Positions 4,601 to 47,349 of a DNA stretch of 64,000 bases are shown piece by piece. The notes below the pieces were generated by a model that searched no databases, was not told where the DNA came from, and saw nothing but the letters and a program-made list of their open reading frames with translations. A program made the position numbers and the translations under genes. The number at the start of each line of letters is the position of its first letter. The first letter of the stretch is position 1. The DNA comes from a phage, in NCBI GenBank assembly GCA_019566135.1, contig GCA_019566135.1_3044.1. One strand, written 5' to 3'.

Positions 4601-5461
4601 TTACACCGCCATTTTTCCTTTAATTGGCAGATGAGATACATAGTTGTTAAGAACAAAATTATGAGGCTTTGCAAATTGACTCAACCAAAATACCTGCGAT
4701 TCTGTGTCCCATTCATCAAATTCATCTGGAAATTTTAATTGTAATTCGCATAAATCCATAGGTTCACGACGTAAAATTTCTTTACATTGTTCTACGTGAT
4801 TCATATAGATATGAGTATTACCACCAGAAAATATCAAATCTCCAGGAATAAGATTACACATTTTAGCTACAATATGAACTAACGTAGCATATGATGCAAT
4901 ATTAAATGGAAGACCGAGGAAAACATCTACCGAACGTTGATACCACTGCAAATCTAAATAGCCATTACGCACATTAAACTGATAGAACATATGACAAGGC
5001 GGTAATGCCATATATTTAAGTTCAGCTGGATTCCACGCAGAAACAATTTGACGCCTATCATTTGGCAGTTTTTTAATACGATCAATAACTTTTATAATTT
5101 GATCTACACCGCCAAAATCACGCCACTGTTTTCCATAAATTGGACCAAGTTCACCGCTATGGTATCCTAAATCTTTTGCTTGATTTTCGTAATTTTCATC
5201 CCAGACTGTTTTGCCTTGAATTAATGAATCATGTTGAATTAATCGCAAATCATTGACATTTGTGCTTCCTGATAAAAACCATATTAGCTCAGCAATGCAT
5301 GCATTCCAGGCGAGCTTCTTAGTTGTTACTGCAGGAAAACCTTTGGTTAAATCCCAACGCAATTTAGTACCGAACAAAGCAATTGTTCCTGTGCCCGTTC
5401 GGTCATCGGTTTCATAGCCATTTTCAAAAATGTCTTTAATTAAATCTTGGTATTGTTTCAT
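4601..5461 (-). CDS. td: Thymidylate synthase, uninterrupted (no group I intron, no I-TevI)
   Basis: 286 aa; [17 protein letters not shown]... matches T4 Td as remembered; one contiguous frame. Confidence 0.95.
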
Positions 5462-5506: not shown

Positions 5507-6699
<1,193 letters not shown>

Positions 6700-8339: not shown

Positions 8340-8369
8340 ATAGTACCATGGAAGGACAAGGATGTAAAC
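8340..8369 (-). promoter_or_regulatory. T4-type early promoter (-35 GTTTAC 8369..8364, -10 TGgTACTAT)
   Basis: Same conserved module; follows the gene 32 terminator (PeSL-type cassette). Confidence 0.65.
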
Positions 8370-8390
8370 AGTTTTGTGAAAAAATTTTTG

Positions 8391-8419
8391 AAATAAAAAA
8401 GGGGACCTCTAGGGTCCCC
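8391..8419 (-). terminator. Rho-independent terminator after gene 32
   Basis: RNA hairpin GGGGACC-CUAGA-GGUCCCC followed by UUUUUUAUUU. Confidence 0.7.
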
Positions 8420-10036: not shown

Positions 10037-10690
10037 TCAATACTTGCAAGATTTCACAGTTTCAATGAAAACACTTTTAGCTTTCTGTGAATCAATATTT
10101 AAAATTTTTCTATAAGCCTTTAACTTTATAGAATAATTATTCCAGACTAAATTATCAGTCTGTTCATCATGTTTATCAATTATATTTAAAAACGAATCAA
10201 GCAAGATAAACGTCTCAAACGAAATTATATTCGATTGAAGTAGTTTAAAAATATAACTTGATTGAACTTTTGGATTATACTCAAAGATTTCTTTAAAAGC
10301 AGAAACTTCAACTTTTTTACTAAAATAGTAAATATTGCGAATATCTTCTTCAAACTTAAATTTAATTTGTTTTAAGCGTCCGATATATTCACGATAAAAC
10401 ACAAGTGCATCAGCGTCAGAGATGTCACCAATCCAAGCATCTTGGTTAGCAACAAGATTGCTTATAAAAATTAAAGCAAGTTCCTTTAATTTATATTTTT
10501 CTGATAACTTCTGGAAAAAATACTTATCCCTTCGCTTTTGATAAGCGGCATCAGACACCCGCATGCACCAATTATACTTAATAACATCATACTTTCCATT
10601 CATATGTTGTTTTATCATTAAGTATAATTTATAAACTGATTTACCATCAATATATCTTTCACCACCAGCAGGCATGCGGAGTTTAATCAT
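10037..10690 (-). CDS. 59: Helicase loader gp59
   Basis: 217 aa; MIKLRMPAGGERYIDGKSVYKLYLMIKQHMNGKYD... matches T4 gp59. Confidence 0.92.
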   Translation of the reverse strand: MIKLRMPAGGERYIDGKSVYKLYLMIKQHMNGKYDVIKYNWCMRVSDAAYQKRRDKYFFQKLSEKYKLKELALIFISNLVANQDAWIGDISDADALVFYREYIGRLKQIKFKFEEDIRNIYYFSKKVEVSAFKEIFEYNPKVQSSYIFKLLQSNIISFETFILLDSFLNIIDKHDEQTDNLVWNNYSIKLKAYRKILNIDSQKAKSVFIETVKSCKY

Positions 10691-26130: not shown

Positions 26131-26171
26131 TTTCTAATCTCCGTAATTCTGTATCAGTAGTTGATAGTTGT

Positions 26172-26201: not shown

Positions 26202-26223
26202 CGTTTTGTGAAAAAAATTTTTG

Positions 26224-26253
26224 AAATAAAAAAGGGAGAGCCGAGGCTCTCCC
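26224..26253 (-). terminator. Rho-independent terminator after the gene 52 operon
   Basis: GGGAGAGCC-UCG-GCUCUCCC followed by UUUUUUAUUU. Confidence 0.7.
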
Positions 26254-29351: not shown

Positions 29352-29451
29352 AGTAAACGTTTAATACATCAATCATTAAAACGATTGGGAATATACTCAA
29401 AACTATTAGTATTATAACTACATTCCATATAGCTTTAATAATCTTTTTCAT
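29338..29451 (-). CDS. Small membrane peptide (37 aa, MKKIIKAIWNVVIILIVLSIFPIVLMIDVLNVYFGFM)
   Basis: ATG 29451 lies downstream of the early promoter at 29480-29509; the track's longer ORF is a translated promoter. Confidence 0.45.
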   Translation of the reverse strand: MKKIIKAIWNVVIILIVLSIFPIVLMIDVLNVYFGFM

Positions 29452-29479
29452 TTTCTGTTCCTCCGTAGTTGATAGGGTA

Positions 29480-29509
29480 ATAGTACCACGGAAGAACAGT
29501 CTTGTAAAC
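29480..29509 (-). promoter_or_regulatory. T4-type early promoter
   Basis: -35 GTTTAC 29509..29504, -10 TGgTACTAT, 18-nt spacer. Confidence 0.6.
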
Positions 29510-29516
29510 AACTTTT

Positions 29517-29698
29517 TTAAAAATATTCGTAATAAATGTGAATACCAACTACTACCGCTGAAACCTGTGCAACCCACCATGCACAAGCAATAAGTACAGA
29601 ATTTAAAATTTTCATAATAACCTCATTACAAAAGTAAATGTTAAACAAATTACTGGAATACTAATTAACCAAACAAAACACCACCATAGTGAACTCAT
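29517..29698 (-). CDS. Two overlapping tiny hydrophobic ORFs (28 aa MSSLWWCFVWLISIPVICLTFTFVMRLL at 29612..29698; 32 aa MKILNSVLIACAWWVAQVSAVVVGIHIYYEYF at 29517..29615)
   Basis: Consecutive ATGA-coupled ORFs; very short, so speculative. Confidence 0.3.
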
Positions 29699-37414: not shown

Positions 37415-37629
37415 TAATAAATTTCCTTCCAATAAGTTGTACCATCTTCAGTAATTTCGCGAAATACACCGTAAATTGGTTGTTTATCACCAACCTTTTC
37501 ATACACATAAACCGAAGTCAAGTGAGTAAACTTAACGGTATGTTCTTTTTGAACTACTACCAAATCTGGATCGAATAATACATCTTCAAATTCGTCATTA
37601 GTGCAATTCTGAACAATTTTACGTTTCAT
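37414..37629 (-). CDS. cef: Cef-like protein (71 aa)
   Basis: 71 aa as T4 Cef; position after goF. Confidence 0.55.
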
Positions 37630-37642
37630 TACAATTTCCTCA

Positions 37643-37924
37643 TTAATTGAACAGTGGAGCGATGCGTTTCAGAAGAGTAGCAGCACCTTTAGCGAATTTT
37701 ACATCATGAAAAACAGTTTCTTCTTCTGTAACAACTCGAACTTTAATATTTTCACAATCCCAATTTTTACGAACAATCTTCAAAAGCTGCAGTAAATCTT
37801 TACATTCAGCAATATCGATAACACATCCACGAGAATCTTCCATTATCGCACGATAACCGTAAGCCATACCATAATCATTGAAAGATTGCTCGATGATAAT
37901 TAAGTTTTCCATTTTATTCTCCAA
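37643..37924 (-). CDS. Hypothetical protein (93 aa)
   Basis: ORF with ATG; promoter-like region upstream. Confidence 0.5.
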   Translation of the reverse strand: MENKMENLIIIEQSFNDYGMAYGYRAIMEDSRGCVIDIAECKDLLQLLKIVRKNWDCENIKVRVVTEEETVFHDVKFAKGAATLLKRIAPLFN

Positions 37925-37936
37925 GTTGTTTTCTGT

Positions 37937-37979
37937 ATCAGTAGTTGATATTGATATAGTACCATAATCAACTACTGAT
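37937..37979 (-). promoter_or_regulatory. Promoter-like element with -10 TACTAT inside a 13-bp perfect inverted repeat (ATCAGTAGTTGAT, 17 nt, ATCAACTACTGAT)
   Basis: Arms at 37937-37949 and 37967-37979; the usual GTTTAC -35 is replaced by one arm. Confidence 0.45.
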
Positions 37980-38019
37980 GTATATAGTTTTATGAAAAAA
38001 ATTTAAACTTTATGCAAAT

Positions 38020-38439
38020 TTATGCTAAAGCTGCTTCGCACCATTTTTTAATTTGGAATTCAGGAACTACCATGAACTGGCCTGCAAAAACAATATTGTA
38101 GAGCTTGACACCATCTTCTACCCAACGGTCCGAAATAAAACCAGCGACTTGATTCGTTGTCCATGGAGTTCCATCTGTTGCCGCCGCAATTGTGAATTTA
38201 TGGTCTTTTACAACTAAAACTGAAGAACAAAGTTTCCATTTAAATGCGCTTTCTTCTGGCTCAATGAACTGACTTGAGACATAACCAATGTTACCATCAG
38301 CGTCACGAACTTTAACCTCGTTACGACCAAAAACTGGATCACTTACAGAAAGAACTTCAACCAGCTTTCCTGCAACTTTAGAACGAGAAGCAACGGATAC
38401 ATATACGTAATCACCAGTAGAGAGATTTGCAATATTCAT
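38020..38439 (-). CDS. MotB-like protein, paralog A (139 aa)
   Basis: N-terminal KOW-like GDYVYVSVASRSKVAGKLVEV; C-terminal WVEDGVKLYNIVFAGQF shared with B and C. Confidence 0.5.
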   Translation of the reverse strand: MNIANLSTGDYVYVSVASRSKVAGKLVEVLSVSDPVFGRNEVKVRDADGNIGYVSSQFIEPEESAFKWKLCSSVLVVKDHKFTIAAATDGTPWTTNQVAGFISDRWVEDGVKLYNIVFAGQFMVVPEFQIKKWCEAALA

Positions 38440-38448
38440 AATAATTCC

Positions 38449-38922
38449 TTAAGCTTTACGAGGAGAAGCATAACGAGTGATTTCAGATTCTTCAACAACC
38501 CGGAAGTCACCTAAGAATACGATATTGTAGAGCTTTTCACCATCTTCAACCCATTGGTCTGTGATGAAGCCACACATCCTATCAGTTTTACTTGGACCAG
38601 CGAAATCATCAATATAATCGAATTCTTCATCAGTTACAAATTCAACGCCTTTACACAACGCCCATTTAAATTGTGTATTAGACTCAGTGGATTCAACTTC
38701 TTCAACAGAAGCAAAATGAGAGCTAACACGAGTTTCCAGAAATTTAGGACTTACGTAAGCGTACTGAGTTTCAGTTTTTCCAGAACCAGGAATGATTCGA
38801 ACTTTAACTTCTTTAACACGACCAGTACCATTAGTACGAAGTCCTACCACTTCAACTAGACGACCTGCAGCTTTAGAACGAGATGCAGACGATACACGCT
38901 TAATTTCACCGATAGTAATCAT
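38449..38922 (-). CDS. MotB-like protein, paralog B (157 aa from ATG 38922)
   Basis: SASRSKAAGRLVEV and QWVEDGEKLYNIVFLGDF; ATG 38922 downstream of the early promoter. Confidence 0.5.
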   Translation of the reverse strand: MITIGEIKRVSSASRSKAAGRLVEVVGLRTNGTGRVKEVKVRIIPGSGKTETQYAYVSPKFLETRVSSHFASVEEVESTESNTQFKWALCKGVEFVTDEEFDYIDDFAGPSKTDRMCGFITDQWVEDGEKLYNIVFLGDFRVVEESEITRYASPRKA

Positions 38923-38965
38923 AATTTTTCTCTCTTTGTTGTTAAGATTTATACTCCGCAGGACC

Positions 38966-38995
38966 ATTATACTCTGGTCCCAAGAGTTTGTAAAC
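38966..38995 (-). promoter_or_regulatory. Early promoter (-35 GTTTAC 38995..38990, -10 TATAAT 38971..38966)
   Basis: 18-nt spacer; the TATAAT sits inside a GGACCA/TGGTCC inverted repeat. Confidence 0.55.
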
Positions 38996-39432
38996 TAGCT
39001 TACACGAACATTAATCACTGCGCTGCGAGGAACTACAGAGTACTCTCCAGCATGAACTACGTTCAGAAGTTCAACACCATCTTCAATCCACTGATCAGTC
39101 ACCCATCCACCCACAGGATTCGCGAATGGACGACGAATATAAACTGCCTTACACAGCAGATCAGTTGGATCTTCAGGTTTTTCAATTTCTGTCAATAGAC
39201 TAAAATCTTTTTCATAAATAATAAGCGGTGATACCATTCCATAATAGTTTCTAATTTCAATATACATCATACCGATAAGAATTCCGCTATTAACACTAAT
39301 AACAGTAAAAGGATATCCGCCAGTTAAACCAAGAAGTTCACAAAACTTATTATGAGCTGTATTAGACAGTACCGAAAAATTCTTAATTTCATCAAATTTT
39401 TTCAATTGATAAACAGCATTATTTTTAATCAT
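38995..39432 (-). CDS. Protein sharing the MotB-like C-terminal domain, paralog C (145 aa)
   Basis: C-terminal GWVTDQWIEDGVELLNVVHAGEYSVVP; unrelated N-terminus. Confidence 0.5.
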   Translation of the reverse strand: MIKNNAVYQLKKFDEIKNFSVLSNTAHNKFCELLGLTGGYPFTVISVNSGILIGMMYIEIRNYYGMVSPLIIYEKDFSLLTEIEKPEDPTDLLCKAVYIRRPFANPVGGWVTDQWIEDGVELLNVVHAGEYSVVPRSAVINVRVS

Positions 39433-39946: not shown

Positions 39947-40009
39947 TTTATTATCCTCAGTAGCTATGGTGTTATAATACCACAACTAACCGAGGAAGTA
40001 AACAACTTT

Positions 40010-44535: not shown

Positions 44536-45155
44536 TCAACTACCTCAATATCATAAACTTTAAATGTTCCAAATGAATCGTGTAATTTTTCTTTTGAAAT
44601 AGAAGTTATTCTATACTTTCCAATTGGAATCATCCATTCTTGTTCATGCACAATCATCATTAAGTTATCAGTACGCTCTGAATCTAGCCCATCAGTATCT
44701 TCATACGTGTACTTAAACTCAGTATTAGGAGAAGAAAGTATAATATCGCTGATATGGTCAGAGTAATTAAAAGCTTTATCAGTTTTTAAACGAAGTATTG
44801 TTTCAGTGAAATATTCAGCATAAGAAAAAGAACACGCTGTATGCAAACTAGTAGTAAATGAATCTACCCTGTTCGTTGAAAACACTTCTCCAACTTGTAA
44901 ATCTTTAATAAGTTCTTTTGTCGATTTTGATATACCACGATATAACTGATAAGGCGATTTAGTTAAATGCTTTTTAATGATTTTATTCAACTGTCTGTGA
45001 AGAGCTTCATTCTTTTTGGCTTCCATACATTGCCAAAGAACAGACTGCTCAAAGTCAGTAAATTTTTCACAGACTTTTTTATACATATCATATTGAAAAT
45101 CAACGCTTTCAGCTTTTATAGATAACTGTTCAACATCTGCAGGATTAATAATCAT
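44532..45155 (-). CDS. modB: ADP-ribosyltransferase ModB
   Basis: 207 aa; paralog of ModA (LYRG, EQEWMIP). Confidence 0.8.
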   Translation of the reverse strand: MIINPADVEQLSIKAESVDFQYDMYKKVCEKFTDFEQSVLWQCMEAKKNEALHRQLNKIIKKHLTKSPYQLYRGISKSTKELIKDLQVGEVFSTNRVDSFTTSLHTACSFSYAEYFTETILRLKTDKAFNYSDHISDIILSSPNTEFKYTYEDTDGLDSERTDNLMMIVHEQEWMIPIGKYRITSISKEKLHDSFGTFKVYDIEVVE

Positions 45156-45181
45156 GATAGCCTCCGTATACTTCAGAAGCT

Positions 45182-45211
45182 ATCATATCATCGTTAGAAA
45201 GGAAAGTAAAC
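45182..45211 (-). promoter_or_regulatory. Early promoter for modB/modA (-35 GTTTAC 45211..45206, -10 TATGAT)
   Basis: 18-nt spacer; 27 nt upstream of the modB ATG. Confidence 0.5.
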
Positions 45212-45222
45212 AACTTTTTGAA

Positions 45223-47313: not shown

Positions 47314-47320
47314 TGCAAAA

Positions 47321-47349
47321 ACGAAAAAAGGAACCCCGAAGGATTCCTT
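47321..47349 (-). terminator. Rho-independent terminator after soc
   Basis: AAGGAAUCC-UUCG-GGGUUCCUU followed by a U-tract. Confidence 0.7.

Follow-up and report, generated by a model that had tools for sequence, protein, structure and literature searches.

A putative early promoter of the PeSL type inside a hairpin formed with its own leader, in the motB–cef region of a T4-like phage

The locus and its early-promoter cassette

The window, meaning the whole 64-kb stretch of DNA that was analysed, belongs to a Tequatrovirus, a T4-like phage nearest to the RB51/RB3 group, and the genes of the region considered here are on the minus strand. The element takes up most of the 95-nt gap between the stop codon at 38020 of a MotB paralog and the ATG at 37912 of an ORF encoding an 89-aa protein, which is followed by cef and then goF (Table 1). 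Two MotB paralogs stand in tandem at 38020–38439 and 38449–38922, both with Pfam PF17613. In T4 the same element sequence is present at 6582–6624, directly after motB, because the shorter MotB paralog is missing there. No promoter or PeSL annotation was present at the site in the GenBank records PST, T4 and M89919, and a full-text literature search found no T4 transcription-start dataset.

The gene content on both sides of the element differs between T4, the RB51-like phages and ES26, the locus thus lying in a variable early region. In T4 and many of its relatives an internal microhomology deletion (in T4, ca. 2010–2075 of locus L002) has reduced the 89-aa ORF to an 11-codon stub, the stub at locus L049 is different from the T4 type, and in ES26 (L022) the SD of the cassette is joined straight to the start codon of cef. 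The cassette has been retained whether the ORF that follows it is whole, has been bypassed, or has undergone deletion, of which at least three forms occur.

The site was aligned, anchored on the −10, with the 15 canonical promoters of the window (GTTTAC-N18-TAnnAT) and with paralogs that T2L (upstream of e.8) and two Mosigviruses carry. The cassette that is repeated as the T-even early promoter has the order A/T tract, GTTTAC, 18 nt, TACTAT, ACAACTATCAACTACTGATACAG and, after a further stretch, TTGGAGAATAAAATG. The site at 37956 aligned with it base for base from the A/T tract through the ATG, and judged from this alignment it is almost certainly one copy of the cassette, so that the view of the sequence-only reading, which had called the site an early-promoter variant, was upheld. 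The A/T-rich tract upstream of the −35, AAATTTTTTTCATAAAACT, aligned with that of the canonical copies. The extended −10 sequence was shared exactly with the copies at 8340, 26172, 29480, 29993 and 57568, and the SD and start region TTGGAGAATAAAATG was identical in the copies 57568 and 29993, in T2L e.8 and in the Mosigvirus paralog. Also the leader that forms the downstream arm of the element recurs, unpaired, at 26153–26165.

Three minor observations concern the cassette and its surroundings. The T run of the A/T tract (37991–38003) varies from 5 to 13 T among near-identical relatives (L046, L051). G/C-rich hairpins with T runs precede the canonical promoters 8340, 26172 and 47284 (at approximately 8375–8405, 26205–26235 and 47315–47345, minus strand), an example being the upstream terminator hairpin GGGGACCctagaGGTCCCC-TTTTTT, and the 37956 site has no such hairpin. 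An 'attL' feature placed on the leader 20-mer in a T2 record (L057, AP018813 6093–6112) was set aside, as it looks like an automatic prophage-finder label.

In the −10-anchored alignment the upstream arm of the inverted repeat (37979 to 37967, minus strand) fills the 18-nt spacer, and the hexamer aligned with GTTTAC is ATATAC (37985–37980), directly upstream of the arm. Read in the sigma-70 frame, TATACA (37984–37979) is the −35, with a 17-nt spacer and one base in common with the arm; it agrees with TTGACA at four of six positions and with the T4/PST consensus TTTACW at five of six (PMC4122927). The sequence-only reading had placed the arm at the −35 position and taken the canonical −35 to be lost, which is wrong in detail because it is the spacer that the arm occupies; a −35 is still there, in weakened form. 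The −10 TACTAT agrees with TAYWAT of TTTACW-N17-TAYWAT at all six positions and is preceded by TGn, as a match to consensus alone. Both this TGn extension (37964–37962) and the upstream A/T tract are unaltered. Judging from the A/T tract, the TGn, the TACTAT and the −35 with its four matches, the promoter is probably active, and standard sigma-70 spacing predicts a transcription start at about 37949, 7 nt after the −10, where the downstream arm begins. A middle promoter with a MotA box was rejected, the spacer containing no TGCTT and none being listed between positions 5349 and 10058 of T4.

Table 1. Coordinates of the element, its neighbouring genes and the early promoters with hairpins in the 64-kb window
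Feature	Position	Strand	Basis or remark
MotB paralog (RB51ncORF010c), upstream gene, absent from T4	38020..38439	-	transcripts would run into the hairpin
A/T-rich UP-like tract GTTTAAATTTTTTTCATAAAACT	37986..38010	-	aligns with the tract of the canonical copies
Weakened −35, ATATAC/TATACA	37979..37985	-	−10-anchored alignment
Whole hairpin	37937..37979	-	fold; both arms only in RNA starting upstream
Upstream (5') arm ATCAGTAGTTGAT, in promoter spacer, derived part of the element	37967..37979	-	inverted repeat and paralog comparison
Extended −10, TGG + TACTAT (37961 to 37956), inner stem and loop of the hairpin	37956..37964	-	exact TGGTACTAT
Downstream (3') arm ATCAACTACTGAT, start of the conserved cassette leader	37937..37949	-	same leader at 26153-26165, in T2L e.8 and in the Mosigvirus paralogs
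GGAG SD (37922-37919) and ATG (37912-37910) of the 89-aa ORF	37910..37922	-	14 nt past the hairpin, outside the main stem
89-aa protein of unknown function (RB51ncORF009c, phrog_3720), downstream gene	37643..37912	-	ORF
Early promoter	−10 end 39974		−23.7 kcal/mol
Early promoter	−10 end 29480		−22.7 kcal/mol
Early promoter, motB-cef site	−10 end 37956		−20.2 kcal/mol
Early promoter	−10 end 45182		−18.0 kcal/mol
Early promoter, motB promoter	−10 end 38966		−16.8 kcal/mol
Early promoter	−10 end 7339		−15.2 kcal/mol
SD-burying hairpin	39954-39996	-	fold
SD-burying hairpin	29433-29522	-	fold
SD-burying hairpin	45126-45213	-	fold

The inverted repeat and its fold

The sequence-only reading had described a 13-bp perfect inverted repeat flanking the TACTAT, and this description was exact: ATCAGTAGTTGAT at 37937–37949 is the reverse complement of 37967–37979, and TACTAT lies between the two at 37956–37961 on the minus strand. 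The repeat grows to 20-nt arms with 85% complementarity and 3 nt between them. Folded as gene-strand RNA, it gave a hairpin of 13 bp, a 2×2 internal loop, 5 bp (one of them G·U) and a CUA loop, altogether 18 pairs, with a stability of −20.2 kcal/mol (z −6.9) that none of 200 shuffled sequences equalled. The hairpin was kept when folded within a 156-nt RNA context.

The 64-kb window contains two inverted repeats that are perfect over 13 nt and have a loop of at most 40 nt. First-order Markov random sequences built on the window contained 0.22 such repeats on average, and since 13% of them had at least one, the repeat count by itself is just mildly unusual; the fold is far more stable than its shuffles. 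The second repeat, AATTATACTTAAT, lies at 10570–10582 and 10617–10629 with a 34-nt loop, inside a 217-aa ORF (10037–10690, minus strand).

RNA starting at the promoter and RNA reading through from upstream differ in what they can form. Because the predicted start is the first base of the downstream arm, promoter-initiated RNA would be without the upstream arm; both arms would be present in read-through RNA alone, and therefore only read-through RNA would form the strong hairpin. When folded on its own, the RNA beginning at 37949 was unstructured (−5 kcal/mol, z +0.6). The main stem stops at 37937, 14 nt before the GGAG (37922–37919), and so does not sequester the SD or the AUG of the 89-aa ORF. 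The ribosome-binding site is reached just by a weak outer helix, in which UUUUUCA pairs with UGGAGAA and which contributes about −3.4 kcal/mol.

The hairpin resembles an intrinsic terminator in being stable, intergenic and situated after a stop codon. Unlike one, it has no U tract (tail ACAGAAAACAAC, gene strand), and only 4 of its 13 perfect-arm pairs are G/C. A consensus scan between the upstream gene and the hairpin found no intrinsic terminator, and that scan was negative also at the site itself. As the U tract is absent, the hairpin is not a canonical intrinsic terminator, and this candidate was rejected. Two GenBank records, SA21RB and SA20RB (OL960580 6096–6146; OL960581), carry a terminator label here, which is a WebGeSTer rho-independent prediction.

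A length of about 18 paired positions is close to the minimum for an RNase III substrate. With this number of pairs, a small symmetric internal loop and an intergenic position, the hairpin could be a processing site of the RNase III type that parts the RNA of the motB region from that of cef and goF. It is, however, shorter than typical substrates, the Rfam 15 covariance models gave no match at E ≤ 1 across 37600–38300, and neither an Rfam family nor a known T4 RNase III site matches it. Such processing is considered improbable.

Conservation, variants and origin of the patch

The 45-nt element was held by 498 phage records and was identical in 476 of them. Five variant types were recovered, covering approximately 14 of the 22 variant records: A to G at arm position 4 (five records), which turns an A-U pair into G·U in the sense RNA and breaks the symmetry of the DNA; A to G in the internal loop (six records); in IME340, C to T in the −10/loop; in IME537, an additional A within the inner region; and in RB18, A to T at the last pair but one of the downstream arm. 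All copies retrieved, the five variant types included, have the same central 9 bp in the stem. Two of the types fall in the arms and three outside, which is roughly a chance split in a sample too small for arm depletion to be seen, and there was no compensatory double change at the 37956 site among the variants.

Among approximately 25 fetched copies, the 58-nt core had one polymorphic site, while both flanks had many. A search for further variants in IMG/VR and metagenomes with a 19-nt central anchor returned identical arms only, plus about ten chance matches. In distant T4-like phages the element was absent upstream of cef at the 12 loci compared (cef identity 44–68%), and because of this a deep covariation comparison is impossible. 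Conservation of the palindrome in related phages, to which the sequence-only reading had pointed as informative, was accordingly found in part: the sequence is the same throughout the 476 records mentioned above, and it has no counterpart at those 12 distant loci. The invariance of the site could have its source in promoter constraint together with low divergence within the genus.

The variants also bear on an effect at the level of the DNA, in which cruciform extrusion or altered melting would make promoter strength follow superhelicity; a cruciform-prone site had been one suggestion of the sequence-only reading. A quasi-palindrome of 43 bp with a 3-nt centre has the −10 in its middle, and folded as single-stranded DNA the hairpin was more stable than its shuffles (z −5.5). 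An E. coli promoter regulated by a cruciform was reportedly engineered by Horwitz and Loeb in 1988, and the 37956 site is like it in that the inverted repeat spans core promoter elements. Unlike that engineered case, the perfect arms are short and the centre is long and imperfect: the arms are just 13 bp, A/T-rich, and 17 nt apart with mismatches in between. The DNA hairpin is also weak (−11.5 kcal/mol per strand), and the A to G variant of five records breaks the DNA symmetry but keeps a G·U pair in the RNA. Other promoters likewise pair through G·U, which is meaningless in DNA. Endonuclease VII of T4 cuts cruciforms and would make their extrusion costly. A cruciform thus found little support, and an effect of this kind is regarded as quite improbable, somewhat more so than processing by RNase III.

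The comparison with paralogs showed where the site departs from the rest of the cassette. Relative to the paralog of the Mosigvirus MC06, which has a canonical −35 and spacer, there are 11 changes within the 19 nt of the −35 and spacer, and the remainder is nearly identical, with no difference in the stretch that runs from TATGG over the −10 and ATCAAT to within the leader. Also T2L e.8 and the Mosigvirus paralogs taken together are identical or near-identical to the site over the whole stretch between A/T tract and ATG except for a patch of approximately 19–30 nt. The new patch is reverse-complementary to the cassette leader, and the inner 5-bp stem is present already in the MC06 paralog. As the changes are confined to one patch that is complementary to the leader, they point to a single patch-wise event, and the sequences compared suggest a templated conversion of the quasi-palindrome type as its origin.

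Such an origin is also the starting point of the main rival explanation, compared with which the cruciform, operator and RNase III explanations are minor. The palindrome would then have no selected function: a one-step templated mutation or gene conversion, e.g. quasi-palindrome correction, would have been seeded by the pre-existing inner TGGTA/TATCA stem, and the product would persist in a conserved promoter of a young genus with low divergence. This agrees with the confinement of all differences from the Mosigvirus paralog to one 19-nt patch that is an exact reverse complement of the leader, with the presence of the inner 5-bp stem in that canonical paralog, with the lack of compensatory changes at the site, with the missing element upstream of cef in distant T4-like phages, and with variant types that are not depleted in the arms. 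It agrees less well with a 58-nt core so much less polymorphic than its flanks, and the recurrence of the same design, built from unrelated sequences, at a further five promoters and in two motB alleles, described below, is hard to account for without selection for pairing. A functionless by-product is therefore judged unlikely, although less so than the three minor alternatives.

Hairpins at other early promoters and the predicted role of the element

The range −30 to +30 was folded around 16 early promoters of the window, and six of the 16 reached the threshold of −15 kcal/mol (Table 1). As a control, chimeras were made of the promoter's own upstream half and the leader of another promoter, and only 19 of the 240 chimeras folded at −15 kcal/mol or below. 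Five native promoters beat all their own chimeras, four of these being among the five promoters other than 37956. Approximately one third of the early promoters in the 64-kb window thus carry spacer–leader pairing that is specific in cis.

The −10-enclosing hairpins at the other early promoters are built from unrelated sequences. At 39974, 29480 and 45182 the 3' arm holds the SD (GAGG, GGAGG) or the SD together with the AUG, and according to the folds the ribosome site of these three would be buried in read-through RNA and would not be buried in locally started RNA. The motB promoter (38937–39010) exists as two unrelated alleles, GGGACC-agagTATAAT-GGTCC and GAGAGCC-tgtTATAAT-GGCTCTC (L001 RB51, L047), and both of them pair around the −10. 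Single-base variants of this promoter (L032 and, in T4, L003) retain G·U or G-C pairs. Of all observations, these on the motB promoter speak most clearly for selection on the pairing around the −10 in these phages.

The same promoters bear on the proposal of the sequence-only reading that the repeat is an operator for a dimeric DNA-binding protein. Such a protein would shut off or tune the early promoter. Perfect 13-bp half-sites do bracket the −10, with centres 30 bp apart or about three helical turns, and the mechanism of T4 early-promoter shut-off is described as incompletely understood (PMC2988021). One half-site, however, is generic leader that is present also at non-palindromic promoters, no second palindromic copy was found in the 64-kb window, and the arms of the sister promoters have unrelated sequences, which argues for structure over a shared protein site. 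No candidate for a sequence-specific repressor was identified. MotB was rejected in that capacity, since its DNA binding is reported to be non-specific and early RNA reportedly did not change when motB was knocked down (PMC7827196; PMC6070864). An operator is accordingly held to be very improbable, the least probable of the explanations considered.

The site is best read, from its sequence, as an early promoter of the PeSL type embedded in a hairpin that is built from its own leader. A short patch covering the −35 and spacer would have been replaced by sequence reverse-complementary to the leader, so that the −10 came to lie inside a hairpin of 13 + 5 bp. The promoter probably still fires, and its transcripts would start at the downstream arm with the leader open, whereas transcripts coming from the upstream motB genes would carry both arms and fold. 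On the folded read-through RNA the hairpin would most likely be a boundary element. Read-through could be attenuated or made to pause by it, or the upstream message, once cleaved, could be protected at its 3' end. A role of the hairpin at the RNA level, whether as boundary, in attenuation or in stability, is given slightly less than an even chance. The explanation as a whole, with a motB–cef early promoter of the PeSL kind, a rewritten patch and a boundary hairpin on read-through RNA, is considered about as probable as its negation.

PeSLs were described in RB49 and phi1 as an A/T tract, an early promoter plus a stem-loop followed by SD and ATG (Arbiol et al. 2010, PMC2839356). Their stem-loops commonly lie within the −35 to −10 interval or overlap the −10, and one of them served as a strong terminator when placed in a reporter, with a fall in expression similar to that caused by rrnB T1 (PMC2839356). 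PeSLs were later extended to the pair T4/PST, with the consensus TTTACW-N17-TAYWAT (Comeau et al. 2014, PMC4122927), and in that pair the authors locate the stem-loops immediately ahead of the promoter and not at the −10 (PMC4122927).

At the level of sequence the 37956 site has all features of a PeSL: it is intergenic in a variable early region and has an A/T tract, a sigma-70-type promoter, a stem-loop and SD + ATG. Like PeSLs, the cassette occurs in several copies across the genome, the flanks of which are nearly identical, and close relatives differ by gain or loss of the genes next to it. The placement of the stem around the −10 is of the RB49/phi1 style and unlike that of T4/PST, whose upstream arrangement is found at the window copies 8340, 26172 and 47284. 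Further differences from PeSLs are that the stem is A/T-rich instead of G/C-rich and is made of the cassette's own leader, and that the gene losses came about by microhomology inside the ORF or by SD-to-SD joins, not by PeSL–PeSL recombination. The class of PeSL-type cassettes is already known, and the site is an ordinary member of it, present in T4 too. What the site adds is that RB49-type phages are not the only ones with a hairpin around the −10: T4 has one, and so do its closest relatives.

A second known parallel is the translational control of the T4 genes e, soc, 49 and I-TevI by promoters placed within hairpins (reviewed in PMC3014915). In these, as predicted for the 37956 site, the promoter lies within the region of the 5' strand, so that the long upstream RNA folds and the local RNA is without the 5' strand. 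Unlike the 37956 site with its early promoter, the known cases have late promoters (TATAAATA) and sequester the SD/AUG. In this last respect the sister promoters 39974, 29480 and 45182, which bury the SD, are closer to them than the 37956 site is.

Taken beyond the single site, a hairpin formed around an early promoter with its own leader might be a general T-even device that ties the fate of an mRNA to its starting point, a generalization that is possible but doubtful. Read-through RNA could then be attenuated or trimmed until a stable 3' end is reached, and at promoters with a buried SD it could be translationally silenced; locally initiated RNA could remain open. The motB–cef copy could be an extreme case, produced by a one-step templated quasi-palindrome conversion, in which the long stem could bring the U-rich tract and the GGAG together. 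If the pairing is functional, each early gene cassette would be insulated at the RNA level from its upstream neighbour, and such insulation, if true, would help to explain how cassettes can be shuffled without upset expression. The practical value of the site is modest: at 6582–6624 of the model phage T4 it offers a clean natural test case.
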